Of a stretch of 64,000 nt of DNA, positions 8,040-63,557 are shown one piece after another. Position 1 is the stretch's first letter; every line of letters begins with the position of its first letter. This stretch comes from Escherichia coli (lineage in GTDB: Bacteria; Pseudomonadota; Gammaproteobacteria; Enterobacterales; Enterobacteriaceae): NCBI RefSeq assembly GCF_044324875.1, contig NZ_CP172185.1. One strand, given 5' to 3'. A program made the translations under genes and the position numbers. The notes below the pieces were generated by a model. That model was not told where the DNA came from, made no database searches, and saw only the letters and a program-made list of their open reading frames with translations.

Positions 8040-8241
8040 TGCAAAATGGCATCTGAATCGATCGCAGTTTGGCATTCGAATCGATCATGATTTGGCATCC
8101 ATCTCCGATCACAGTTTGGCATCACAATCGATCACGATTTGGCATGCTTCCGATCATTGATTGGCATCCTGCCAGTCACTCCGGGAATTAACTCTTTTCA
8201 CCACAGTCTCCATTGCCGTGTTTAAACCAGTGGAGACGTCA

Positions 8242-9807
8242 ATGTCCAGAAAGAGAAAATCCAGGAGCACTATGGAAACCTGTTTTAAGATCCTTCAGCT
8301 CAAGTTCGACAAGAAGCTGACTAACCGTTGTATCGGACTGACGTTACACATCAGCGCCTCAACCGTTTTTGAGGTTCTTGCCCGCTTCAAAGCCTCTTCT
8401 CTGTCATGGCCATTACCTGCTGATATATCCCATGACACGCTGGAGAAACTCATTTTTCCGCCCAAAGACACCTTTGCATCAGAGCTTGTAATGCCTGACA
8501 TGTTGTACTTCGATACGGAAATGAGAAAACCAGGTGTGACGCGGCAACTGTTGTGGATGGAATACAAGGCACAGGCGGGTAACAAAGCGATGGGATACTC
8601 GCACTTCTGCCGTTGCTACCGGGAGTGGAAAAAAACGCGACGTCTCTCCATGCGCCAGGAGCATCGTGCCGGCGAAAAGCTTTTTATCGACTTCTGTGGT
8701 CCTACGGTTCCTGTTATTAATCCGGACACCGGTGAGATACGCCGCGTGGCAATCTTCGTGGCCGTAATGGGGGCGTCCAACTATACCTACGTTGAAGCGT
8801 GCGAAGGTCAGGACATGATGTCATGGTTAAATGCCCACAGCCGTTGCCTGACCTTCCTGGGCGGCGTACCGAAGCTGCTCATCCCCGATAACCTCAGAAG
8901 CGCAGTGAAAAAGGCCGATCGATATGAGCCTGTCATCAACGACAGTTATCAGGCACTGGCTGAGCACTATGGCACGGTTATCATCCCGGCCCGACCACGC
9001 AAACCTAAAGATAAACCAAAAGCAGAAAACGGCGTCCTCATCGTTGAACGATGGCTTCTTGCCCGCATCCGTAATGAAACCTTCCACACGCTCAGGGCGC
9101 TGAATGCGCGCCTTAGGGAGTTACTGACAGACATGAATAACCGGCCAATGAAGGGGTACGGCAATCAAACCCGTGCAGAACGCTTCCGCATACTGGATGC
9201 GCCAGCACTCTCTCCGCTGCCTCTGGCACCTTATGAATACACGGAATACAAAGCTGTGAAGGTTGGCCCTGACTACCACGTTGAATATGCCCGTCACTGG
9301 TACTCCGTTCCACACGAACTGGTCGGTCAGCGTCTGTCACTGAAGGCGGGGCAGTCGGTGGTACAGCTCTGGCACAAGGGGCAGTGTGTGGCGCAACATC
9401 CGCGCAGCACACATGAATATAAACACACAACCAATCCGCTTCACATGCCAGAGCGCCACCGGCAGCACGGGACATGGACACCGGAACGCCTGATCGAGCA
9501 GGGAAAACGTACGGGCCCGTCCACAGGCCGGGTGGTTGAATCCATGCTGAAGGCAAAACCCCATCCGGAACTGGCTTATCGTGCAGTTCTGGGGCTGCTG
9601 GCACTTCAGAAAAAATACGGCCCGGAACGGCTGGAAAAGGCCTGTTACGTTGCCCTGCACTATAACGCCCCTGACAGACGCTTTATCGACAATCTGCTGC
9701 GTCACCATCGGGAGAACCTGGAGCTTCCATTATCCCGCCAGGGCGAACAACATCCGGCATATGCTTCAGAGCATGAAAACCTGCGTGGTCCGGGCTACTA
9801 CCACTGA
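8242..9807 (+). CDS. istA: IS21-family transposase IstA
   Basis: About 520-aa ORF with N-terminal HTH and DDE-type catalytic core typical of IstA; RBS GGAG upstream of ATG 8242; followed by istB. Confidence 0.85.
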   Translation: MSRKRKSRSTMETCFKILQLKFDKKLTNRCIGLTLHISASTVFEVLARFKASSLSWPLPADISHDTLEKLIFPPKDTFASELVMPDMLYFDTEMRKPGVTRQLLWMEYKAQAGNKAMGYSHFCRCYREWKKTRRLSMRQEHRAGEKLFIDFCGPTVPVINPDTGEIRRVAIFVAVMGASNYTYVEACEGQDMMSWLNAHSRCLTFLGGVPKLLIPDNLRSAVKKADRYEPVINDSYQALAEHYGTVIIPARPRKPKDKPKAENGVLIVERWLLARIRNETFHTLRALNARLRELLTDMNNRPMKGYGNQTRAERFRILDAPALSPLPLAPYEYTEYKAVKVGPDYHVEYARHWYSVPHELVGQRLSLKAGQSVVQLWHKGQCVAQHPRSTHEYKHTTNPLHMPERHRQHGTWTPERLIEQGKRTGPSTGRVVESMLKAKPHPELAYRAVLGLLALQKKYGPERLEKACYVALHYNAPDRRFIDNLLRHHRENLELPLSRQGEQHPAYASEHENLRGPGYYH

Positions 9808-43532: not shown

Positions 43533-44009
43533 TTAAAGCAGACCATGTTCGGCAAAGGAGAAAACCTGGCTGCCACCGACTATCAGATGGTCCGGCACCC
43601 GGATATCCACCAGGCCCAGTGCCTGTACCAGACGTTCCGTGATAAGGCGGTCTGCCTTGCTGGGTGTGACTTCACCGGACGGGTGATTGTGCGCCAGCAC
43701 CACGGCAGCGGCATTGTGGTACAGGGCGCGTTTAATCACTTCCCGGGGATGGACTTCCGTGCGGTTGATGGTGCCGGTGAAGAGGGTTTCACCGGCAATC
43801 AGCTGATTCTGGTTGTTCAGATACAGCACCCGGAATTCTTCACGCTCCAGTCCCGCCATGTTCAGAATCAGCCATTCCCGTGCCGCATGCGTGGAGGTGA
43901 AGGCCACGCCGGGTTCATGAAGATGGCGGTCCAGGGCTTTCAGGGCCCGCTGAATGAGGCTGCGCTCTCTGGTTGTCATTTCTCCGGGCAGAAAGGAAAT
44001 CTGTTGCAT
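43533..44009 (-). CDS. RadC-like JAB/MPN-domain protein (YeeS/YkfG/YfjY family)
   Basis: 158-aa ORF with JAMM motif HNHPSGEVTPSKAD. Confidence 0.88.
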   Translation of the reverse strand: MQQISFLPGEMTTRERSLIQRALKALDRHLHEPGVAFTSTHAAREWLILNMAGLEREEFRVLYLNNQNQLIAGETLFTGTINRTEVHPREVIKRALYHNAAAVVLAHNHPSGEVTPSKADRLITERLVQALGLVDIRVPDHLIVGGSQVFSFAEHGLL

Positions 44010-44024
44010 TGTTCCGGCCCCCTT

Positions 44025-44504
44025 TCAGTCAATGATGCGCATAATGGCGCTGCATTCCGGATGCTGCAGGGCGTAATCCCGCAGACGGTAATAATGAACC
44101 GTCATGGCATAACACTCCGTACGGCAGGCGTGATGACTGTACGTCATCAGACAGGCAGCAATGCCGGCGGCTTCCGGGCTCATTTCAGCGCGGTTACCGT
44201 TCATGGCATTGAACAGTACCCATGTTTCGTCATCATCATCATCCGGTTCGGGGGCCATAAATGCCCCGCCGTTGTTCAGGGTGTACAGATTCCAGATACC
44301 ACCGCAGTAGTCTTCGCACAGACGGTCCATCCAGCCGAAGACACTGGGCTCCAGGGTCACCCACTGTGGAATGAGGCCAAAATGCTGCGGCCAGAAGCTG
44401 ATGCGCTGTTCATCAGGGACGAGGCTGGCAACCAACTGAGGCGGATTATTCTCTGGTGTTGTAGCTGAATAAATTGTGGGGGTATTCTGAGAAACGGTTT
44501 TCAT
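44025..44504 (-). CDS. Antirestriction protein (KlcA/ArdB-like, YfjX/YafX family)
   Basis: 159-aa ORF with acidic stretch EPDDDDDE and the conserved C-terminal region of island antirestriction proteins. Confidence 0.85.
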   Translation of the reverse strand: MKTVSQNTPTIYSATTPENNPPQLVASLVPDEQRISFWPQHFGLIPQWVTLEPSVFGWMDRLCEDYCGGIWNLYTLNNGGAFMAPEPDDDDDETWVLFNAMNGNRAEMSPEAAGIAACLMTYSHHACRTECYAMTVHYYRLRDYALQHPECSAIMRIID

Positions 44505-44585
44505 GAGATAACGCCTTAAATAACAAATAAATGTGTGTTTTTCAGGAACGAAAGCTGAATGATTCCCTCACTCAGGGAAACGGCA

Positions 44586-45404
44586 TCAGCGCATGCTCTC
44601 CAGCAGCGTTTCTGCCATCACCCACAATGCGCGGTTGAGTTTTATATCGGTATCAATGCTGTGAATGGCCCGGGTATGGATACGTTTTCCTTTTGCACTG
44701 CGACCGGAAATCCCGCCTTTCAGCATATTCTCCTGGATGGTCTGATAAGCACTCCACAGGTCCTTACCGTAATCCTCCCGGCGTCGTGGTGTCAGAATGT
44801 CGGCGGTGGTGACGGGCTGATGTTCGTCACCATAACGGTAAGTCAGTGCCGCCTGTGCCAGCGCCTGGCGTGCCGGTGGCGGCAGGACCAGCGACTGCAT
44901 GGCATCACGCTTCTCCTCTATCCGGTCAAACACGCCCACCACCTCGTAAGCCCCTTCAATGACTCTGTCCACCACATTTCCCCGGTGCGGAACACGCACT
45001 TCCCCCCGAGACTGACCGCAGACGCATCCGTTCTGGCAGACGAACCTGAAGTAACCCGGCAGCATCTGGTAGCTGGAGGTACCGTCATGAGAGTTGAGCA
45101 GAATAATTTCAGGGACATGTTGTCCGTTTATCTCCCCGTCACGGCGCAGACGCAGCATGTGTTTGGTATACCCCCGGCGACCCGGGTCACGTACGCGGGT
45201 CTGGCAGGCGAAGAATGGCTGAAAGCCTTCCCGCTGCAGGCTTTCCAGCACGGTGATGGTGGGGATGTATGTATAGTTCCGGCTCCGGGAGGTGTGTTTA
45301 TCTTCCCCGAAAATCCCGGGCACATGGTGCATCAGCTCTTCACGGGTCAGCGGACGGTCACGGCGTATCTGGTTCGCATAACCAAAACGACTGGCTAATC
45401 GCAT
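44586..45404 (-). CDS. DUF932-family protein (YfjQ-like)
   Basis: 272-aa ORF, ATG with RBS GGAG; conserved first gene of the antirestriction-radC-TA cassette. Confidence 0.8.
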   Translation of the reverse strand: MRLASRFGYANQIRRDRPLTREELMHHVPGIFGEDKHTSRSRNYTYIPTITVLESLQREGFQPFFACQTRVRDPGRRGYTKHMLRLRRDGEINGQHVPEIILLNSHDGTSSYQMLPGYFRFVCQNGCVCGQSRGEVRVPHRGNVVDRVIEGAYEVVGVFDRIEEKRDAMQSLVLPPPARQALAQAALTYRYGDEHQPVTTADILTPRRREDYGKDLWSAYQTIQENMLKGGISGRSAKGKRIHTRAIHSIDTDIKLNRALWVMAETLLESMR

Positions 45405-45447
45405 ACTTTGCTCCTTATCAGTGGTTAAGACTGAATGACGTAATCAA

Positions 45448-45481
45448 TGAAAAAGCCGCGTCTCACGGAGAAGACGCGGCC
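45448..45481 (-). terminator. Rho-independent terminator after the secreted-protein/small-ORF pair
   Basis: Hairpin gccgcgtct-cacggaga-agacgcggc followed on the minus strand by T5. Confidence 0.5.
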
Positions 45482-45504
45482 TGATGGATGAAATGAATGA
45501 GGGT

Positions 45505-45657
45505 TTACCGAAGCCCTTCAGCATTGTGGTGACGCAACCGGAAATGCGTTCCCTGATCATCTTCAATAAGCACATTGCGGTAAGCTGTTGTGACAGCCAT
45601 CGCCTGTTCGCGTGAGAAAGGGCCTTCGGGCAATAAAACAGGGTGACAGTCCGACAT
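45505..45657 (-). CDS. Small ORF (50 aa), tightly coupled downstream of the 225-aa secreted protein
   Basis: ATG 6 bp after the upstream stop; [41 protein letters not shown]...; below the ORF-track length cut-off; resembles small island proteins but family not verified. Confidence 0.3.
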
Positions 45658-45662
45658 ACCGG

Positions 45663-46340
45663 CTATTTTCCGATAAATTCAACGCTGGCGCCGGTGGCAT
45701 TACCGTCAGCACCAACCGTGACGGTCACTTTGTCGTACGCACGGTCTTCAGGATTGAACACTTCAAACTCAACCTTATTGCCTTTTACTTCGTAAGAGCC
45801 AAAATCAGCGGTTTCTGTTATTTCCTCGTCATATTCCCGGGCGTATGCCTGCCGGGCAGCCTGCAGGACGGAATCTTTATTAATAGTGGTCGTCTGTTTC
45901 GGGGAAAAACCGGCAAGTGATGTGACAAATTTCGGACAGACCTTCAGCATATCACCGCGGGTGAATTCCATTCGTACACCAAATGCCTGTAAAACGGACA
46001 CATCACGCTCTGCTATGGAGTGAACGGCTTTTTTGACCATTTCCGGCGCCTGTCCGACTTCCACCTCAACAGCCCTGAATCCTGTCTGCTGATTACACAT
46101 TTGTGATGTGGGGATCAGGTTACCGTTAATACTGATACGGTTGCCCAGGAGCGTCTGTACGCCATTCGGGCATCCCTGCATCAGGCCGGTAATACCAATC
46201 GTGCCATTTTTCAGCATTACCAGCGCCTGACCATCTTCCGTCATGGTCTGACACCAGCCGTTTTTGACAGCCCAGTTGCCGGCGGAGGCGGAGAATGATG
46301 CCACAGTGAACAGCAGGGGAAAAAGAATTCTGGTATTCAT
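45663..46340 (-). CDS. Secreted/periplasmic hypothetical protein (225 aa) with signal peptide
   Basis: N-terminus [23 protein letters not shown] (signal peptide with AxA-type cleavage site); RBS GAGG; occupies the cargo slot between the GTPase and DUF932 genes. Confidence 0.6.
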
Positions 46341-46458
46341 GACTGACCTCTGAAATTAAAGAGCGTGTTATTGATAATGACAGACGGTATACGGCAGTGG
46401 TTACCGTAATCCGTTGTCGTGTAAAGGTATACGGTTGCCACGGGGGACTCCGGAGCGT

Positions 46459-47343
46459 TCAGAACAGGTGATCCCACAGAGTGACCAGCAGGTGGATAAT
46501 GCGGTCCCGGGTTTTGCGCAGAAGCTGTAACATCCAGGCCGGAAAACTGAAACGGGCAACGGCGTCGTCAAAACTTTTCCCGATGGTTTCACCAAAAGTC
46601 TGTTGTGCGTGTTTCTGGACCCGTTCAGAGCGGTTTTCCCCCCGGATATGTGAATAAACCGCGCTGGTTGCCTGTGGCGGCAGTGCGTGGATCATCAGTG
46701 ACACCAGTGCCGGAATATTCCAGCCGACAGGCGCGGCAACGGGGAGTACCGGAAATGATGAAGGGAACAGGGTTGCCACCCGGGCTGTCACCGTCGCCAG
46801 CGAGAGTTCCTGGTGACGGGACGGGCATTTTTCTGTGTCGTTCCATTCTTCAGCAGGAAATACGCGATCGGCATGGCTGAGAACAAACAGAAAACGCGAG
46901 GGATCTGCACCTTCATTCAGTAAAAACTGATGCATGGCGATGTCGGCAGCATACGCACGTTCATCAGCCCGCAGGATCCAGATAATCAGATCCAGTTCGG
47001 GCAGTAACTGACTGTAAAGTGCCCGGTATTCCTGATCATGCTGTGGTGTTTCGCCAGTGCCGGGCAGATCGACCAGCGTCATTCTTCGTTCACCGGGCTG
47101 AAAGGTAAGACGATGAGCCTGACGGGTGCAGCCGTTCAGCGGATGCGTGGCGCAGACACGGGACTGAAAAATGGCATTGCACAGGCTGCTTTTTCCGGCA
47201 CCGGATTTACCCATAATGCCAATCACGGGCTCGTAATGAATAACACTGTGGAGATGTTCAAGGATTTTCTGGCGAATTTCTTCAGGAAGAAACGTCAGAT
47301 ATGATTTCACTTGTGCGGAGAGGGAAGAATGGCTGAATGACAT
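46459..47343 (-). CDS. YeeP/YfjP/YkfA-family GTPase
   Basis: 294-aa ORF with P-loop GIMGKSGAGKSS and G3 motif DLPGTG; typical lead gene of CP4-type island cassettes. Confidence 0.85.
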   Translation of the reverse strand: MSFSHSSLSAQVKSYLTFLPEEIRQKILEHLHSVIHYEPVIGIMGKSGAGKSSLCNAIFQSRVCATHPLNGCTRQAHRLTFQPGERRMTLVDLPGTGETPQHDQEYRALYSQLLPELDLIIWILRADERAYAADIAMHQFLLNEGADPSRFLFVLSHADRVFPAEEWNDTEKCPSRHQELSLATVTARVATLFPSSFPVLPVAAPVGWNIPALVSLMIHALPPQATSAVYSHIRGENRSERVQKHAQQTFGETIGKSFDDAVARFSFPAWMLQLLRKTRDRIIHLLVTLWDHLF

Positions 47344-53916: not shown

Positions 53917-54510
53917 GACGAATAATGCGCTTACGGTTTTTGCTCTGGCGTTTTGTCATGTCGCCACGGTGTTTTATCAGCAGGTTTCTGTTTATCGTTC
54001 AACTGTGGTATCTGGTCACCGGCCTTCATTTTGTATGCTGTGTCCGTTTTATCCTGCAGCGGCGTTGCCGGTGATTTACTGAAAATACCCTGCGGTTTAC
54101 GGTTAATGGTCAGAGTTACCATCAATTTTGTTACCTCGCGCTGTCAATGGAAGTAGTACCTCATCCGATATCTGAAAATGTTTTCCGGTGGATGTTACAG
54201 CGAATTTCATGTAAGACATGTTGTTGTCGGTATTGTTCAGTACTGTGCGTTGTGAGCGTATTCGTTATCAGACAGAGGGGCAGGGAACAAACGTCAGAGG
54301 TTAAGGATATCCGGGAACAAATGGCGTAAACGGACATCTCAGTGCCTGAGAAACAGTACAGGTCAGGCCATCATGGCCTGCAAACAGAGCCCTGGCGACC
54401 CCGTGGCCGAAAACGAAACAATAACCCGCGCGCAGTGCGAGGAATCCGGATGTGAAGCAATCAGCAGGTAATATTAATGGCAGGACCAGCAGGTTCTTTA
54501 AACAAACGAA

Positions 54511-55273
54511 GGTGGTGACTCCAATTAGTAGAACATATATTTTTCGATAAAGGCACCGATGACTTTTTCATGAAGTTCTACAGAGCGCGAGAAACAGATA
54601 GTTCTGCGGGCCAGACGTTTGATTCGGGTTCTCAGAGGTAGATGTTGCGCTCAATGCGCTGAGTAAAAATCTTACCAGTCAGATGCTTCTCCTTCGGTAA
54701 CTCTCTGGTGTAACTACCCCATTCGTCAGTGGTCAACATACCGATGGTAAAAGGGCAAGCAGCGCCAGCAATTCACGACAGGTTTAATCAGTCCGTAGGC
54801 CAAAAGTGTAGGCCAGAACGCCACCAGTTTTCGTGTTGTACGTGTACCAGAGCCAGTGCTGTCGCGCTTTACTGCCGACAAAACTCCATTGCTCATCAAG
54901 TTCGCAGATGAGTGCCATATCAGCATGAGCGACCGGGTATGACGTTATTCTTCGTGGCGAGAGTTTTTTAAAGTCCGGATGACAGTATTAATGCCGATTT
55001 TCAGCGTACGGGCAGTATCGCGAACTCCGGCACCGTTGAAAGCCATTTCAGTGATTTGCTCTTTAACTCCCGGTTTACGGGCCTCGTAACGGTAAGTGAG
55101 CTGAAGCACTCGATGACAGTCACGGCAGCGAAATCGATCATGTCCTTTGGGTTCTTCCCGTGACGGTAAACCTGAACGGACTGGCAACAGGAGCAATGAA
55201 GGTTAACTGTGACCATGAAAGAACCTTAAAAGTGGCTATTATACTCCTAATTCAACTAATTGGAGTCATTACC
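54511..55273 (-). mobile_element. IS1-family insertion sequence (divergent isoform), apparently defective
   Basis: 763 bp; terminal repeats GGTGGTGACTCCAATTAGTAG (left) and AATTGGAGTCATTACC (right); InsA-like and InsB-like coding on the minus strand, each split across two frames. Confidence 0.8.
54945..55216 (-). pseudogene. insA: insA-like gene with internal frameshift
   Basis: Zn-finger N-terminus (MVTVNLHCSCCQSVQVYRHGKNPK) is in one frame and the HTH C-terminus (GHDRFRCRDCHRVLQLTY...AFNGAGVRDTARTLKIGINTVIRTLKNS) in another; downstream InsB-like sequence (...RTRIKRLARRTICFSRSVELHEKVIGAFIEKYMFY) is also split. Confidence 0.6.
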
Positions 55274-55281
55274 GTATTCAT

Positions 55282-55452
55282 AATGGATTAGGTTCAGCAG
55301 TTGCTGAAGTGCTTGTAGAAACTTGTCCTGTGCCCATGCGTCGGGTGGGGGTTAAAGAGCGGTATGGCCAGGTTGAAACTCAGGACTTTTTACAGAGAGA
55401 GTACGGGTTAACCGCGCAAGCTATTGTGGCGGCAGCCAGAGAGCTATTGTAA
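55282..55452 (+). pseudogene. Transketolase C-terminal-domain remnant, truncated by the IS1 insertion
   Basis: Frame encodes ...GLGSAVAEVLVETCPVPMRRVGVKERYGQVETQDFLQREYGLTAQAIVAAARELL-stop, a typical transketolase C-terminal tail, beginning immediately after the IS1 right end with no upstream gene body. Confidence 0.55.
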
Positions 55453-55653
55453 TTCATGGAGTTTGTTTACCATTCTGTTTTTCTTAAAAGTGAGTGTCTG
55501 TGCGGTCACTAAACTCGGTAATAAAGCAGTTCATTGCAGGATAAGAAGCGTTTGGTTGTGTCGTTTTACCGTAAGAACCGACCGCCGTATGTATCCATTA
55601 AGCCAGTATTGGTAACGTAGGTGCCCACCTTTTCAAACTGGTGGGCGCCTGTT

Positions 55654-55826
55654 ATGGAGCAAAAACATTATCCGCAGAACCCCGCAGATCATTTTCAAAT
55701 GAGTTAAACTTCAAATGGTTAAACTGGTTTTGCAACCAGGAGCCTCTGTTGCCCGTATTGCCCGGGAACACGATATCAATGATAACCTCCTGTTCAAATG
55801 GCTCAGACTCTGGCAGAACGTAAGGT
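55654..55826 (+). pseudogene. Transposase helper (HTH OrfA-type) remnant of an unidentified IS
   Basis: Short frames encoding MEQKHYPQNPADHFQMS-stop and ...LQPGASVARIAREHDINDNLLFKWLRLWQ, resembling IS OrfA HTH segments; interrupted by stops. Confidence 0.3.
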
Positions 55827-55904
55827 AAAGGGAGATGAAAAAGGCAATAGCAGAACTGAGTGACAGTGAAACCATTCTGGCGTACAGGGTTGGATGGTGA
55901 AACT

Positions 55905-55938
55905 GATAAAAAACCCTCTGAAAATTCTGTCAGAGGGT
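55905..55938 (-). terminator. Candidate rho-independent terminator (minus strand)
   Basis: Perfect 8-bp stem ccctctga/tcagaggg with 8-nt loop, followed on the minus strand by T6. Confidence 0.35.
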
Positions 55939-56649
55939 GTAGTCAAAAATGGTAGATATTTACGATGCAGTAATGCTTTCACTCCGGTAATTAATTTCCG
56001 TGATTAACTGCTTTCGATCAATAAAGGAATTGCAAAAGTGTGATCTTGTTCACGACATTGTGGATGATAATATGCCTGATGTCTGAATCCGGAAACAGTG
56101 ATCTGGCGGTTTCATGTGAAGTTGACGGATAAAAAATCCGCACGACCAGACAGACGTGCGGTTTACGAAATTCGTAACAAGAGGCTTTTCTACGGATCAC
56201 GTGGTGCGTGCCACGTGAAATTTTTGTAGCGCAAAATGTGTGATGTGTAAATACAAGGAAGGAAAAAAGTTAAATCGGTGGAAGTCCATGCCTGCCACAT
56301 GTATGTCTGCATTCCTCGTTTTGAACAGAATTCTCACCAGACATCGTGAATTTCTCATTCAATCATCAGAGATATTACCCAGGATTTTTATTGTTTTGTG
56401 ATAGCAGTACTTTAAATGTTCAGATGCTAAAATAAGCGCGCTTATTATAATTATAGTTATGATGTTTTATCTGTATGTATTTTAATGATTTTCGCGTCAT
56501 TGCTTTTCTGCTGCTTAAATTGAAGGCGCATATTATACACAATAATATTCCTGGCATTATTAAATTAATAAAAGAGGATTCTTATCACTGTATTTTTGCT
56601 CCGCACTACCGTTCTGGCTGGTGAAGTAATAATACAGGAGAATAACAGA

Positions 56650-58197
56650 ATGCTTAAAAGACGTGATGCTTTTTTAAAGAAAAGCGCGCTGGCAGTGAGT
56701 GTGGCCCTGCTGCTCTCGGCTCAGGCTCAGGCTCAGGATATTTTAATCGGACCGATTGAACCTGGCGAAGATAATAGCTTTCTTGTTGGAGAATCAGTAG
56801 CTGGCCGTTCGATTGATAAAGTAAGAAATGTATGGTTGATTGGTGATGATTCTTTTTTATTAGACTCAAACAGGACTGTGCTTTTGGGGAATAATTCTGA
56901 TGTTGTGAACTCTCCGGGAAGTGTGAGTCTGGGGCATGATGCACTTATTGCTGACTCTGAATGGGGGACTGTTGCAGGAAAAGAAGCGTCACTTATTTCT
57001 TCTCGTCAGAGCTCGGCAATTGGTGCGTTTTCATCTGTGCAGGATTCTACCAGTTCTGTAGCTCTGGGCCATGGCTCACAGGTGTCGGGAGAAAATAACG
57101 TGGTATCTGTTGGTGCCGGGCCTGAGGGATATGGAGAGAGTGTCAAAGGAGCACCGGAAACCCGCCGGATTATAAATGTGTCTGATGGTATCAATAACAC
57201 AGATGCAGCGACGGTAGGGCAACTGAATGAACGATTTGATGATGCACAGGTCTTTTTGTTGCAGACGAATGAAAGAATTGACGAGACAGATAAACGTCTT
57301 TCAACAGTTCATGCTGAACTCAGCAGGGATATTATTGCAGGCACATCGGCAGCGGTGACGTATACAGATGTAACAGCGCTTGCACTTCAGGATGAGATAA
57401 AGGATGGGACGAACAAAGTACGTGATGAGTTGAAATCACAGGGAGACAGTCTGCGTGGTGAGATAGGCGGTGTATACAGAGATGCCCGTGCTCATACTGA
57501 CAGTCAGGTCACAGCAGTACGTGATGAACTGAAGGCAGAGGGAGACAGTCTGCGCGGTGAGATAGGCGGTGTATACAGAGATGCCCGTGCTCATACTGAC
57601 AGTCAGGTTACAGCAGTACGTGATGAACTCAGCAGGGATATTATTGCAGGCACATCGGCAGCGGTGGCGTATACGGATGCATCTTCTCTTGCTCTTCAGG
57701 ATGAAATAAAAGAAAAAGCGGATGAAACAGTTCAGGTTTCCCGGGCTTATACAGATAAAAGTGTACGGGATGCCCGTAAAGAAGCGAAAAGCCAGGCAGA
57801 ACATCTCAGCGATGTGCTTGTGAAGAACAGGGCGCAGACGGATGCAGCAATAGCCTCAAATACAGCAGCGATAAGGAATAACAGTCATCGTCTGGATTTG
57901 ACGGAAGCCTGGCAGAAGATGGCGACAGAGAGAATGAATAATATGCAGGAGCAGATTAAAGAGAACCGGAAGGAGTTAAGGGAGAGTGCAGCCCAGAGCG
58001 CGGCACTGGCAGGTCTTTTCCAGCCATACAGTGTTGGAAAATTTAACGCGACAGCAGCCGTTGGTGGTTACCGTGATGAGCAGGCCATTGCGGTGGGCGT
58101 GGGCTACCGTTTCACAGAGAATGTGGCAGGAAAAGTTGCAGTTGCTGCAGGTGGGTCATCCGCATCGTGGAATGCTGGTGTGAATTTTGAGTTCTGA
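56650..58197 (+). CDS. YadA-type trimeric autotransporter adhesin (515 aa; Eib/Saa-like size class)
   Basis: Signal peptide [29 protein letters not shown], repetitive coiled-coil stalk, and C-terminal YadA-like anchor ending ...[19 protein letters not shown] 9 nt upstream; AT-rich 5' region. Confidence 0.8.
57313..57730 (+). repeat. In-frame tandem and nested repeats inside the adhesin stalk
   Basis: A 105-bp unit (...[33 protein letters not shown]) occurs twice in tandem (about 57424-57528 and 57529-57633), flanked by two copies of a second roughly 100-bp unit ([16 protein letters not shown]...ALQDEIK) at 57313 and 57625. Confidence 0.7.
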
Positions 58198-58258
58198 CAG
58201 GTCAGGATTTAGATATCTGTCCCGGGGGGAGTCCCCCGGGATATAATGAGGTACAGAG

Positions 58259-58714
58259 ATGCTGGATATAATCCTGGCGACGAGAGATATTTATTTTGAA
58301 AAAGCCCTGCGAGAGATATTTGGAACCGTAAGCAGTCGAATCAGATATATAGAAGATGCCATATCAGACAGAAGAAGGGTGCAGTCAGGCAGGTCATTCA
58401 GATATTATTTTGTATTCTGTGATGATGAGTATACAGATATTGTTCGTATTCTTTTTACCGGAGAGGCCTGCTGTATTCTGAATAAGTCGATGCTGAATCT
58501 GAGAGCGGCCGGAGGTGTGTTGACGCTGGAAGAGCGCAGAGCGGTACTGAACCGGTATTACAGAGGTTTAAGTATTGCGGAGATTACAGAAGAGACGGGG
58601 CAGAATGACAAGACGGTATACGGTCATCTTCGTCGTGCACTGCAGCGGTCTGGATTCCGGAAGGGGCGTTTTATAAAGGGGAGAGAAGCGGCGGGGGATT
58701 CAGGTGTTGAATAA
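58259..58714 (+). CDS. Putative transcriptional regulator with C-terminal sigma-70 region 4 / LuxR-type HTH
   Basis: 151-aa ORF; C-terminal LTLEERRAVLNRYYRGLSIAEITEETGQNDKTVYGHLRRALQ resembles sigma region 4/GerE-type HTH; 60 bp downstream of the adhesin gene. Confidence 0.45.
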   Translation: MLDIILATRDIYFEKALREIFGTVSSRIRYIEDAISDRRRVQSGRSFRYYFVFCDDEYTDIVRILFTGEACCILNKSMLNLRAAGGVLTLEERRAVLNRYYRGLSIAEITEETGQNDKTVYGHLRRALQRSGFRKGRFIKGREAAGDSGVE

Positions 58715-58788
58715 TGTATCTTATATTGTGATATTGAACCGCCCCGGGAATCCTGGAGACTAAACTCCCTGAGAAAGAGGTAAACAGA

Positions 58789-59115
58789 ATGACTAAAAAT
58801 ACTCGTTTTTCCCCCGAAGTCCGTCAGAGGGCGATTCGTATGGTTCTGGAAAGTCAGGGCGAATATGACTCACAGTGGGCGGCAATTTGTTCCATTGCCC
58901 CAAAGATTGGCTGTACACCGGAGACTCTGCGTGTCTGGGTACGCCAGCATGAGCGGGATACCGGAGGCGGTGATGGCGGGCTCACCACCGCTGAACGTCA
59001 GCGTCTGAAAGAGCTGGAACGTGAAAATCGTGAACTGCGCCGCAGTAACGATATCCTTCGCCAGGCTTCCGCTTATTTTGCGAAGGCGGAGTTCGACCGC
59101 CTCTGGAAAAAGTGA
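58789..59115 (+). CDS. IS629 transposase OrfA
   Basis: 108-aa [63 protein letters not shown]... matching IS629 OrfA. Confidence 0.9.
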
Positions 59116-60002
59116 TGCCACTGCTGGATAAGCTGCGTAAGCTGTACGGGGTCGGACCGGTATGCAGTGAACTACATATTGCCCCGTCAACGTATTACCA
59201 CTGTCAGCAACAGCGACATCATCCTGATAAACGCAGTGCCCGTGCGCAGCGCGATGACTGGCTGAAGAAAGAGATACTGCGCGTATACGATGGGAATCAT
59301 CAGGTATACGGTGTGCGTAAAGTCTGGCGTCAGTTGTTACGGGAAGGAATCAGGGTAGCCAGATGTACAGTGGCGCGCCTCATGGCGGTTATGGGACTTG
59401 CCGGTGTTCTCCGGGGTAAAAAGGTCCGCACTACCGTCAGCCGGAAAGCCGTTGCCGCAGGCGACCGCGTAAACCGTCAGTTTGTGGCAGAACGTCCTGA
59501 CCAGTTGTGGGTGGCTGATTTTACTTACGTCAGCACATGGCAGGGGGTCGTCTATGTGGCGTTCATCATTGATGTGTTTGCCGGATACATCGTGGGGTGG
59601 CGGGTCTCATCGTCTATGGAAACGACATTCGTGCTGGATGCTCTGGAGCAGGCGTTATGGGCCCGTCGACCGTCCGGCACAGTCCATCACAGTGATAAAG
59701 GTTCTCAGTATGTATCGCTGGCCTACACACAGCGGCTTAAGGAAGCCGGATTACTGGCATCAACAGGAAGTACTGGTGACTCGTATGACAACGCGATGGC
59801 GGAGAGCATCAATGGCCTTTACAAAGCGGAGGTAATACACCGTAAGAGCTGGAAAAACCGGACAGAAGTGGAGCTGGCCACACTCACGTGGGTGGACTGG
59901 TATAACAATCGACGATTGCTGGAAAGGCTGGGCCATATCCCACCGGCAGAAGCAGAAAAAGCTTATTATGCTTCCATCGGAAACGATGATCTGGCAGCCT
60001 GA
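59112..60002 (+). CDS. IS629 transposase OrfB (DDE integrase core)
   Basis: 296-aa ORF overlapping orfA by 4 nt; motifs [16 protein letters not shown] and [15 protein letters not shown]. Confidence 0.9.
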
Positions 60003-60410
60003 GTTCACAGATAAAACACTCTCCAGGAAACCCGGGGCGGTTCATATCGGTGCTGCTGCTGTTATTTTTTGTTGTATTTGTGACGAATGGTTAAGAATAA
60101 AACATGAGTTGGTGATTATCAGGACAGGTTGCTTGTATATGAAGATAACAAAGGCGGCATTTATTTTTGCGCTGTCAGTGTGGAGTGTTGCTGTGATATG
60201 TCTTTTATTATTTGTACTGGTTGTTCTGGGATAGCTATAGTGGAATTATTATTTTTTTAAGACTATGGTTTATATTTTTATTCGGCAATATTTCTGTAAA
60301 CAATTAAATATCAGAAAGGCGTGTTGTATGCGTGAACACGCCTGAGTATGTATACAGAGATTGTTAATTTGGAGAGAATAATTACAGTTGTTATTTATTT
60401 GACGTCCTGA

Positions 60411-62018: not shown

Positions 62019-63557
62019 TTATTCAGCTGGCAGTGCTATGCGCCACGGAAGCAGTTCGCTGACCCGGTTGACCGGCCAGTCTGCTATGACGCCAAGCACA
62101 TGGCGAAGGTAGCTTTCTGGATCCACGTCATTCAGTTTGCACGTCCCTATCAGGCTGTACAGTAGCGCTCCCCGCTCACCACCATGGCCAGAGCCGAAGA
62201 ACAGGAAGTTTTTACGACCCAGACTTACCGCCCGCAGGGCATTTTCAGCGATGTTGTTGTCGATTTCCACCCAGCCATCGTTCGCATAGTACGTCAGTGC
62301 CGGCCACTGGTTAAGTGCGTACGCGAACGCCTTCGCCAACTCTGAGTGTCGCGACAGGGTCTTCATCTTTTCACGCAACCAGCTTTCCAGGGATTTCAAC
62401 AGCGGTTTCGTTTTTCGCTGACGTTCAGCAAGCCGCTGCTCTGCCGGCATTCCCCTTATATCCGCCTCTATGGCGTACAACTGACCGATCTGCTCCAGGG
62501 CTTCTTCCGTCAGTGCTGACGGGATGCGGACGTGCACATCGTGGATCTTTCGGCGGGCATGAGCCCAGCAGGCAGCTTCCGTTATCCCACCATTGCGATA
62601 CAGCTCGTTGAACCCGGCGTACGCATCCGCTTGCAGCACACCGCTGAAGCAAGCAAGATGAGTCTGCGGATGGATGCCTTTTCTGTCCGGGCTGTAAGCG
62701 AACCACACTGCAGGTGCCAACGCTGACCCGGCATTGCGGTCATCACGAACATACGCCCACAACCGCCCGGTCTTCGTCTTCTTATTACCCGGCATCAGTA
62801 CCTGGACCGGGGTATCATCGGCATGGAGTTTGCCGTCAGTCATGACATAGCCATGAAGCGCCTCTTCCAGCGGAGACAGCAGCCGGCAGCATGCATCCAC
62901 CCAGCCCGACAGCAGTGAACGGCTCAGCTCCACACCTTGCCGGCCGTATATTTCTGACTGGCGATACAGCGGGGTGTGCTCTGCATACTTCGAGGTCAGC
63001 ACGCGGGCCAGCAGCCCCGGTCCGGCGATACCCCGCTCGATGGGCCGCGAAGGTGCAGGTGCCTGCACGATGGCATCGCACTGAGTACAGGCATGTTTTT
63101 CCCGTACCGTCCGGATAACCCGGAAGGCGCTACGCATCAACTCCAGCTGTTCGGCGGTATCCTCGCCCAGATAGCTCAGTGAACCGCCGCAGTTCGGGCA
63201 GCACGGCGCCGCAGGCAACAGTCGCTTTTCGTCACGGGGTAGTGATTCAGGGAACGGCTTACGGATGCGGGTCTGACGCAACGGACGCTGTACTGCCGGG
63301 TCATACACCCTACCAGTCAGCGTATCGCTCTCTTTCTGAAGCCGGTTCAGATCGGCTTCCATTTGTGCGATACGGCGGGAGACTTTTTCGGAACGACTGC
63401 CGAAGTTCATCCGGCGGAGTTTATCCAGCTGCGCCTGCAGATGGTCTATTTCGCGCTCCCGGTTGCTCAGCTTTTCCTGCAGGGCGTGGATCAGCGCTTC
63501 CTGTTCGGCCAGGCGCTGTTTCAGCAGGAAGATGTCGTCAGAAGAGATGTCGTTCAT
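62019..63557 (-). CDS. IS66-family transposase (large ORF)
   Basis: 512-aa ORF with N-terminal coiled coil ([20 protein letters not shown]), zinc-finger CCPNCGG...CTQCD and DDE core typical of IS66 transposases. Confidence 0.85.

Follow-up and report, generated by a model that had tools for sequence, protein, structure and literature searches.

Does the gene at positions 56650-58197 (+) of an Escherichia coli contig (NZ_CP172185.1, assembly GCF_044324875.1) encode an intact surface adhesin, and if so, to which of the known kinds does it belong? We analysed the 64,000-nucleotide stretch of chromosome that carries it, which we call the window. From the letters alone, an earlier note had described a short trimeric autotransporter adhesin (TAA) with duplicated stalk repeats and had likened it to the prophage-borne, immunoglobulin-binding Eib proteins and to Saa. 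We consider it likely that the locus is an intact two-gene cassette in which a short, lollipop-shaped TAA of the type Vc secretion class is followed by a small DNA-binding protein, that the cassette is carried on a CP4-like island, and that it varies in its stalk, its head and its signal peptide. At the level of sequence, comparison of alleles and genomes demonstrates the three features that carry this reading: an in-frame polymorphism in the number of whole stalk units, a mosaic head and a conserved gene pair.

The adhesin and its partner gene

The adhesin frame is listed as 56596-58197 (+), and an in-frame ATG at 56650, with AGGAG ahead of it, gives a protein of 515 residues plus stop, its reading frame intact and without a frameshift. 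The product has an N-terminal Sec signal peptide, a passenger made up of head, neck and helical stalk, and a C-terminal YadA-type anchor, as expected of a TAA, with Pfam matches to YadA_anchor and YadA_stalk. The anchor (residues 457-515, 58018-58194, +; Pfam PF03895) is matched over all model positions, 1-60 of 60, with an E value of 3.5e-16, and would contribute four β-strands per monomer. In a phmmer search of Protein Data Bank (PDB) sequences it also matches the Yersinia YadA anchor 2LME (E 2e-17). Together with a neck match at residues 173-194, this full-length anchor upholds the identification of a short TAA of 515 residues: the gene encodes a lollipop TAA composed of signal peptide, β-roll head, neck, helical stalk and complete YadA anchor.

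To place these parts we used a monomer model from AlphaFold2 (AF2), built with 59 homologues, which has a mean predicted local distance difference test (pLDDT) score of 70. The model shows a helix at residues 5-24, short strands at 42-139, coil at 140-188, helices at 189-233 and 243-456, and strands at 465-513. The first helix falls within the signal peptide (residues 1-30, 56650-56739, +), where inspection finds a basic N-region, a hydrophobic core and a C-region built of an Ala-Gln repeat; an Ala-x-Ala pattern suggests the position of the cleavage site. The last strands form the anchor, for which Foldseek returns 2LME (target TM 0.72) and Hia anchors. When the full monomer model was searched with Foldseek, the anchor alone was matched and the head was without a match.

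The head (residues ~31-165, 56740-57144, +) consists of about seven YadA-like left-handed β-roll repeats of 14-15 residues, which by inspection span residues ~60-150, and its modelled strands have pLDDT values of 70-85. Its similarity to known heads is supported by the SadA head/neck fragment 2yo0, which matches residues 124-203 (E 4.4e-7, phmmer against PDB sequences), and by the EibD head, which matches residues 91-224 (E 6e-10, BLASTP); the Pfam YadA_head match is weak (E 0.3). The neck (residues ~166-194, 57145-57231, +) corresponds to positions 1-22 of Pfam YadA_stalk (E 2.9e-5) and also aligns residue by residue with SadA necks. The α-helical stalk (residues ~195-456, 57232-58017, +) comprises about 260 residues, with no β insertion in the model, and probably forms a trimeric coiled coil.

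With respect to export and assembly, established TAA biology suggests that Sec would export the adhesin and that three C-terminal four-stranded segments would form a 12-stranded outer-membrane barrel. The passengers would be threaded out through it to give a trimeric helical stalk of ~260 residues, with the neck and a small left-handed β-roll head on top. By analogy with other TAAs, the most likely role would be adhesion and/or cell-cell aggregation, possibly with protection against serum or phagocytes.

The gene is not private to this genome. Public data hold an exact match to the 515-residue protein (P0012) and several clusters of 515-residue proteins that are 98-100% identical to it, two of them on ~20 contigs each. 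Variants of 515 and 513 residues at 98-100% identity are numerous, two of these occurring on ~100 contigs each, and near-identical RefSeq copies are named 'YadA-like family protein'.

The second gene of the cassette (58259-58714, +) is separated from the adhesin stop codon by 61 nt. It encodes a protein of 151 residues, predicted to bind DNA, with a short α/β N-terminal domain and a helix-turn-helix (HTH) of the σ70-region-4/LuxR type at residues 87-130 (Pfam Sigma70_r4_2, E 4e-7). The downstream HTH regulator of the earlier note is thus present as a gene, its regulatory role being suggested by the fold. The protein is mostly 98-100% identical among copies and essentially confined to E. coli.

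The HTH protein is collinear with ORF-156, the product of the gene that follows eibA, eibD and eibE, at ~22% identity. Its N-terminal half matches the ORF-156 family phrog_6585 (E 3.3e-4), and an hhalign comparison with an ORF-156 profile of 26 relatives, from which the window sequence was excluded, gave 95.4% probability and an E value of 1.6e-8 over 129 columns. By these profile comparisons, the protein is a divergent member of the ORF-156 family and the gene pair is conserved. Among RefSeq complete genomes, the HTH gene is annotated beside nearly every listed copy that keeps the adhesin 3' end. ORF-156-like genes also lie 80-83 nt downstream of YadA_anchor genes in three of four unrelated contexts, the fourth having an uncalled gap upstream; since three of the four show this order, the adhesin and the ORF-156-like gene form a recurring module.

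Two settings of ORF-156-like genes deserve separate mention. In one E. coli context, a large TAA of 1439 residues, a gene with a BamE/OmpA domain, a short TAA and an ORF-156-like gene stand in a row, which places the short-TAA/ORF-156 pair next to a giant TAA locus as well. Near hpa genes, an ORF-156-like gene is preceded by a 1.1-kb stretch without a called gene, which could be a decayed TAA gene.

In the AF2 model of the HTH protein (mean pLDDT 78), a four-helix HTH comes after a short β-α-β-α-β-α-β-β domain. Regulators of the NarL/FixJ-LuxR type have a receiver domain longer than the ~80-residue N-terminal domain seen here, and receiver domains carry an acidic pair after the first β-strand, where the HTH protein has Thr-Arg-Asp. 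Since σ regions 2 and 3 are absent, the HTH protein is not a σ factor. NCBIfam matches were all far below their cut-offs. The model is consistent with a truncated receiver-like domain joined to an HTH, probably a transcription regulator tied to the adhesin.

Between the two genes lies a GC-rich hairpin of 10 bp (58219-58242, +), which reaches -22.2 kcal/mol in the centroid structure; the whole 68-nt stretch has a minimum free energy of -24.8 kcal/mol and a z-score of -2.38. At the equivalent position, eib-type loci have a hairpin followed by a T-run. Because no T-run follows the hairpin in the window, read-through into the HTH gene is plausible.

Variation in stalk, head and signal peptide

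The stalk is laid out as A-B-B-A, with all units in frame. Tandem Repeats Finder and a repeat finder agree on a tandem unit of 99 bp, or 33 codons, present in two head-to-tail copies, B1 (57417-57515, +) and B2 (57516-57614, +). These are flanked by a pair of outer repeats of 106 nt, called by the repeat finder, A1 (57299-57404, +) and A2 (57608-57713, +), which are 86% identical, with 15 mismatches in 106 positions. B1 and B2 differ at 7 of 99 positions, five of which are clustered within 11 nt at unit positions 12-22 and turn Lys-Ser-Gln, the subtype of B1, into Lys-Ala-Glu, the subtype of B2 and the one amplified in longer alleles. Four of the seven differences are synonymous, namely the two isolated ones and two from the cluster. 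Exact internal repeats reach 53 nt, whereas 500 codon shuffles gave none longer than 16 nt, so the stalk repeat is not a chance match.

These measurements refine what had been said of the array at the outset. The tandem in-frame duplication and its nesting within a second pair of ~100-bp repeats were correctly recognised, the latter being the 106-bp pair. The period is 99 bp rather than 105 bp, and the two to three differences claimed over the unit are seven, with a comparable number (two mismatches) found in the 3' ~76 nt only. The description as recently duplicated needs similar qualification: single-unit gains and losses do occur on identical backgrounds, but the two-unit arrangement of the window is the commonest allele (26 of 86), so the B1-B2 pair is not a private recent duplication.

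We also considered a hendecad (11/3-residue) hydrophobic periodicity as an explanation for the tolerance of 33-residue modules. The stalk has a periodicity peak at 3.65 residues, which nearly vanishes once the duplicate units are removed and is equalled in 86 of 1000 shuffles; the explanation was dropped and is not used as evidence.

To describe natural variation in stalk length, 86 full-length relatives from a protein search, each a cluster representative, were sorted according to which A and B units they contain. The number of B units per allele ranges over 0-4 and that of A units over 0-2. The arrangement A-B-B-A accounts for 36 of the 86, A-B-A for 22 and A-B-B-B-A for 16, with rarer arrangements (A-A, B-B-B, B-B-A-B-B-A and forms without A2) making up the remainder. 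The window's own form, a Lys-Ser-Gln unit followed by a Lys-Ala-Glu unit, is the most frequent. Protein lengths step by 33 residues, as 482/515/548 and 480/513/546. Series that differ in copy number are seen with two head types or more (482/515/548 and 513/546), and every change in the repeats keeps the frame and involves whole units. The proneness to length variation foreseen for the array is therefore realised among public E. coli proteins.

Two alleles are especially informative. P0001 (548 residues) equals the window protein plus exactly one 33-residue unit, with 0 substitutions, and P0032 (482 residues) equals it minus one unit, with 1 substitution; compared residue by residue, both are pure copy-number events on one background. 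The subtypes are also ordered along the stalk. Lys-Ser-Gln occurs solely in the B unit that directly follows an A unit, a position that Lys-Ala-Glu can also take, and all later units are Lys-Ala-Glu. In copy 1 of strain TUM1886, five clustered substitutions relative to the window at 57429-57439 give unit 1 the subtype of unit 2, as gene conversion between units would be expected to do. In these sequence data, unequal recombination or slippage between the 99-bp units adds or removes exact 33-residue modules, each of which should alter how far the head extends by roughly 5 nm.

The head varies independently of the stalk and in a different manner. Amino-acid divergence between the major alleles lies entirely within residues 31-163, and the proteins are identical from residue 200 on. 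Between the window and strain ECCNB12-2, codons 31-165 have a synonymous divergence (dS) of 0.89 and a nonsynonymous divergence (dN) of 0.44, a dN/dS of about 0.5, while codons 1-30 and 166-515 show no differences. The variable cassette covers codons ~29-135 (56734-57054, +), the membrane-distal part of the β-roll head, and at the protein level the substitutions are confined to residues 31-135.

Strain TUM1886 carries two paralogous copies, one at 5.13 Mb and one at 2.41 Mb, the latter beside aerobactin genes. They lie on two similar island backbones and both encode proteins of 515 residues, with different heads. The two diverge in sharp blocks, one upstream (56399-56503 in window positions) and one in the head (~56699-57099). 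This sharply bounded pattern indicates that the head is an old, diverged cassette swapped by recombination rather than the product of recent point mutation. Sister-island paralogues are plausible donors. Such recombination replaces ~320 bp encoding the exposed tip of the head, with a possible change of ligand or antigenic specificity.

Two other genome-sized contigs (4,762,195 bp and 5,752,694 bp) hold adhesin pairs of equal length, 548/548 and 515/515. Such pairs, like the one in TUM1886, hint that paralogous stalks evolve in concert.

A third source of variation lies in the signal peptide. Tandem Repeats Finder reports 3.3 copies of the hexanucleotide GGCTCA at 56718-56737 (+), which encode (Ala-Gln)3 in the C-region. 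The number of Ala-Gln pairs differs among alleles and gives steps of two residues: 480/482/484, 513/515/517/519 and 546/548/550. Changes in this repeat alter the number of pairs at the cleavage region. The recombining head cassette, this variable repeat and the homology of the HTH protein to ORF-156 were all missed in the earlier note.

Upstream of the gene, a conserved AT-rich region with the 5' leader (56504-56649, +; GC 0.285-0.36) is kept between alleles and paralogues, and includes the AGGAG ribosome-binding site ~11 nt before the ATG. GC drops to 0.285-0.315 at 56300-56599, in agreement with the AT-rich upstream region initially described. Very AT-rich upstream regions are of the kind usually silenced by H-NS, and by analogy such silencing is plausible here. 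A promoter and terminator scan of the adhesin locus found nothing beyond shuffle expectation; its sole consensus promoter-like match (56419-56448) lies in a non-conserved block and scores no better than shuffles.

In that block, 56399-56503, otherwise identical paralogues differ at ~33 positions per 100 nt, which suggests alternative promoter-distal cassettes besides the alternative heads. It contains a perfect 16-bp palindrome, AATAAGCGCGCTTATT, at 56431-56446, ~200 bp before the adhesin start codon and overlapping the promoter-like match. We considered the palindrome as an operator and rejected it: because AATAAGCGCGCTTATT is not conserved in strain NRZ14408, and because the block in which it stands is unrelated in other alleles, the palindrome is not a constant element of the cassette.

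Genomic setting, decay and the weighing of the evidence

The first ~41 kb of the window are core chromosome, with prkA, sppA, topB, gdhA and ynj-type genes, and an IS21-family transposase gene at 8161-9807 lies within this region. The neighbours of the adhesin gene are of a different kind, comprising RadC, an antirestriction protein, a DUF932 protein, a YeeP-like GTPase, YagK/YfjJ-type proteins, AlpA, ProQ and insertion sequence (IS) elements. The RadC/JAB, antirestriction, DUF932 and YeeP-like GTPase genes form a module at 43533-47343 (-) that is typical of CP4-like islands. Judged by this gene content, the locus is carried on a chromosomal CP4-like island. A tRNA scan found no tRNA gene in the 64-kb window.

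Mobile elements or their remains border the cassette on the two sides, in line with the earlier placement of the locus between IS elements. On the left, 54523-55814 holds a decayed IS1, a transketolase gene fragment and a transposase fragment, mapped from another genome's annotation; the window is 100% identical over 54300-56460 to stretches so annotated in several genomes. On the right, an intact IS629/IS1203-like element of the IS3 family (58735-60044, +; 1310 bp, two transposase open reading frames) begins 20 nt after the HTH stop codon and marks the right boundary of the cassette in the window. It has 14-bp terminal inverted repeats, TGAACCGCCCCGGG, at 58735 and 60044, and an ALIL programmed-frameshift pseudoknot at 59070-59186 (116 bits), which is the sole Rfam match. 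Homology to other genomes ends at 58734, and the element is missing at this site there. Further downstream, an IS66-family transposase gene occupies 62019-63557.

Among 5426 complete E. coli genomes, 373 match the locus, all of them on the chromosome, and some 3-7% of complete E. coli genomes have the lineage. Poultry or human isolates make up many of the carriers listed. In other strains the cassette lies beside aerobactin genes, and the adhesin gene often has aerobactin or pap genes as neighbours, pap genes in the case of the avian pathogenic E. coli (APEC) strain E123. From the 373 matching records an evenly spaced sample of 60 was used to separate intact from truncated copies: about half keep the adhesin 3' end and the HTH gene, and the other half keep the promoter and 5' end only. 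APEC E123 has lost the adhesin gene beyond the neck; what is left encodes a 188-residue 'hypothetical protein', with sul2 and an ISCR2 fragment behind it. The whole gene is absent from the plasmids in PLSDB, and one plasmid has a 5' fragment. Carriage by phages was also considered and rejected, phage records matching only the C-terminal third. Separately, strain L26 has its adhesin gene annotated as two overlapping open reading frames of 84 and 437 residues, with an apparent frameshift in the variable head region.

This pattern of decay raises the alternative that the adhesin is a relic, silent and on its way to loss among IS elements, with its variation a neutral by-product of recombination between island copies. 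The decayed IS1 and transposase fragments upstream, and the IS629-like element so close behind the HTH gene, would suit a relic, but the frame, signal peptide and anchor are intact both in the window and in many genomes. Whereas about half of the matching genomes retain a mere 5' stump and frameshifted or IS5/IS421-interrupted copies exist, variants of 515 and 513 residues at 98-100% identity are many, two of them on ~100 contigs each, and some genomes keep two copies of the cassette. The very AT-rich upstream region, of the kind generally known for H-NS silencing, is likewise what a silent gene might have. Against neutral variation, the repeat changes are all in frame and by whole units, the dN/dS of the head cassette is about 0.5 and not about 1, and from strain to strain there is almost no change in the stalk, the anchor and the HTH genes. 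We therefore judge a relic to be unlikely.

Several points nevertheless weigh against the preferred reading of an intact, varying cassette. The locus stands in IS debris and decays often, with about half of the matching genomes holding the 5' end only and other copies frameshifted or interrupted by IS elements (IS5/IS421). Because it is so often decayed, selection for adhesin function may be weak or niche-specific. Trimerisation and coiled-coil geometry are predicted from a monomer AF2 model of mean pLDDT 70, and the hendecad periodicity of the stalk is not significant. The regulatory role of the HTH protein is read from its fold, and despite the loss of the Eib Fc-binding motif, described below, immunoglobulin might still be bound through another surface. 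In the literature searched, we found no paper characterising this adhesin gene and no expression or functional evidence.

A broader proposal goes beyond the intact cassette and is, in our estimate, rather doubtful. An 'adhesin plus dedicated regulator' cassette might be mobile and have spread among lambdoid prophages (eib), CP4-like islands and other sites, with read-through supplying an HTH protein that couples the adhesin to another programme and with paralogues serving as a reservoir of heads. If this were true, the HTH protein could auto-activate the cassette against H-NS, or repress motility as MrpJ and PapX do for fimbriae, and variation would operate on three tiers: tip specificity, stalk length and the signal-peptide repeat. 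Apart from this proposal, the ORF-156-type protein is an unstudied candidate regulator for the Eib-like adhesin group as a whole. The alleles also offer a natural experiment, in that stalk length and tip sequence vary independently and isogenic alleles with one, two and three units exist.

Relation to known adhesins

Short TAAs of E. coli such as Eib, Saa and Cla have effects on virulence and serum resistance and on how cells aggregate and form chains. Closest to the window protein in overall design are the Eib proteins (EibA, C, D, E, F and G), lollipop TAAs of the same ~500 residues with a YadA-like β-roll head, a neck and a helical stalk. Their anchor is nearly identical to that of the window protein, and their loci, like the window, have a hairpin and then a ~150-residue ORF-156-type gene after the adhesin gene.

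We accordingly examined whether the window protein is a true Eib-family member, that is, a TAA that binds IgG-Fc non-immunologically through its stalk. Its size is that of EibD (515 against 511 residues), the gene behind it is homologous to ORF-156, and some database entries for near-identical proteins are named 'immunoglobulin-binding protein'. The resemblance is nonetheless concentrated at one end. A full-length BLASTP alignment with EibD gives no more than 31% identity, with 16% gaps, and the similarity is strong only in the last ~120 residues; among phage records, the match covers residues ~398-490 at 57-59% identity for EibA and EibE and residues 301-490 at 37.5% for EibC and EibD, and across EibA, C, D and E the match over ~398-490 reaches 57-62%. 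Because the alignment starts at EibD residue 139, the N-terminal 'Eib region' (EibD residues 1-138) has no counterpart, and in the window protein the signal peptide leads directly into the β-roll repeats.

The stalks differ as well. The window protein has a much longer uninterrupted helix, which contains the 33-residue modules, and no saddle is predicted: the EibD saddle segment is unmatched in the alignment, and the AF2 helix at residues 243-456 is continuous, with no β insertion. The only break in the modelled stalk, at residues 233-242, is of low confidence; it falls within repeat A1, and A2 shows no equivalent.

For the Fc-binding site, which we take to map to EibD residues 384-418, the comparison is more specific. 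The IgG-Fc motif GRTDRIDYAVGA (RIDYAVG), which holds EibD D387 and Y388, falls opposite a 10-residue gap in the BLASTP alignment and opposite unrelated residues of the window protein in a MAFFT alignment. A stalk Asp and Tyr are critical for IgG-Fc binding, and EibG D391A loses it (bioRxiv 10.64898/2025.12.25.695649). The same preprint prints the Fc-binding residues as 'EibE D378-Y388' (bioRxiv 10.64898/2025.12.25.695649). Our EibD record has its adjacent Asp and Tyr at D387-Y388, and the EibG mutant D391A adjoins A392; we read 'D378' as EibD numbering with a typographical error. Because the Fc segment is met by a gap or by unrelated residues, immunoglobulin binding by the Eib mechanism is unlikely, and on this alignment the window adhesin itself appears unlikely to bind immunoglobulin. 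The same conclusion is favoured by the Eib-like ClaA and ClaB, which lack these residues and do not bind Fc (Kotaka et al. 2025).

The 'immunoglobulin-binding protein' names look like annotation carried over from the shared C-terminus, and the label is probably wrong for these proteins. Differences in setting point the same way. The window gene stands in a chromosomal island and not, like the eib genes, at the tail-fibre end of a lambdoid prophage; its intergenic hairpin is without a T-run, and its ORF-156 homologue is only ~22% identical. True Eib membership is consequently a distinctly improbable reading. The Eib-type assignment made at first is not borne out, the Eib region, saddle and Fc motif all being absent, and nor is the prophage-borne character, the locus being part of a CP4-like integrative or pathogenicity island.

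Saa, the STEC autoagglutinating adhesin encoded on plasmid pO113, offers a parallel in the stalk. It has five 37-residue repeats with a motif, A-x-T-Y-T-x-x-Q-V-x-A-L, similar to that of the window, and saa alleles reportedly differ in repeat number. The alignment runs over query residues 121-492 and so takes in the end of the head, the neck, the stalk and the first part of the anchor. That the window protein is Saa or a close variant of it would account for these tandem in-frame stalk repeats with a related motif, but identity over that span is 25% with 20% gaps, the repeat unit is 33 rather than 37 residues, and the head and N-terminal region are different. Unlike the window gene, saa is plasmid-borne and is not followed by an ORF-156-like gene. 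The proposed Saa-type membership is refuted by this alignment, which makes identity with Saa scarcely credible; judged by sequence, Saa is an analogue of the window protein, perhaps also in autoaggregation, and not an orthologue.

Among more recently described proteins, ClaA and ClaB form chains, do not bind Fc and have a pronounced saddle (bioRxiv 10.64898/2025.12.25.695649). The window protein shares with the Cla proteins the absence of the Fc-binding residues. Identity with claA or claB was considered and rejected: their primer-derived 5' ends are absent from the window even when 3 mismatches are allowed, and no saddle is predicted. The Yal proteins are EibG-like TAAs of unknown function that are nearer to Saa and lack the N-terminal domain and a predicted saddle (bioRxiv 10.64898/2025.12.25.695649). 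Compared by description only, their features fit the window protein.

The eYadA protein of APEC TW-XM is another short YadA-family TAA, whose deletion changed motility, biofilm formation, adhesion and virulence (PMC12955052). It resembles the window protein in being a short TAA of this family from avian and extraintestinal E. coli. The two are not the same protein: eYadA has 338 residues, is encoded at the cueR-ybbJ locus and shows only 23% identity over the C-terminal 160 residues. Its downstream gene, unlike that of the window, is not ORF-156-like.

Yersinia YadA itself has the same order of head, neck, stalk and anchor, and the anchors are 48% identical in a structural alignment. Over the passenger, identity is about 23%; YadA is encoded on a virulence plasmid and is without the array of 33-residue modules. 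Measured against these systems, the findings leave the general understanding of type Vc secretion unchanged, and the window adhesin is an ordinary, previously uncharacterised example of a well-known class of TAAs.

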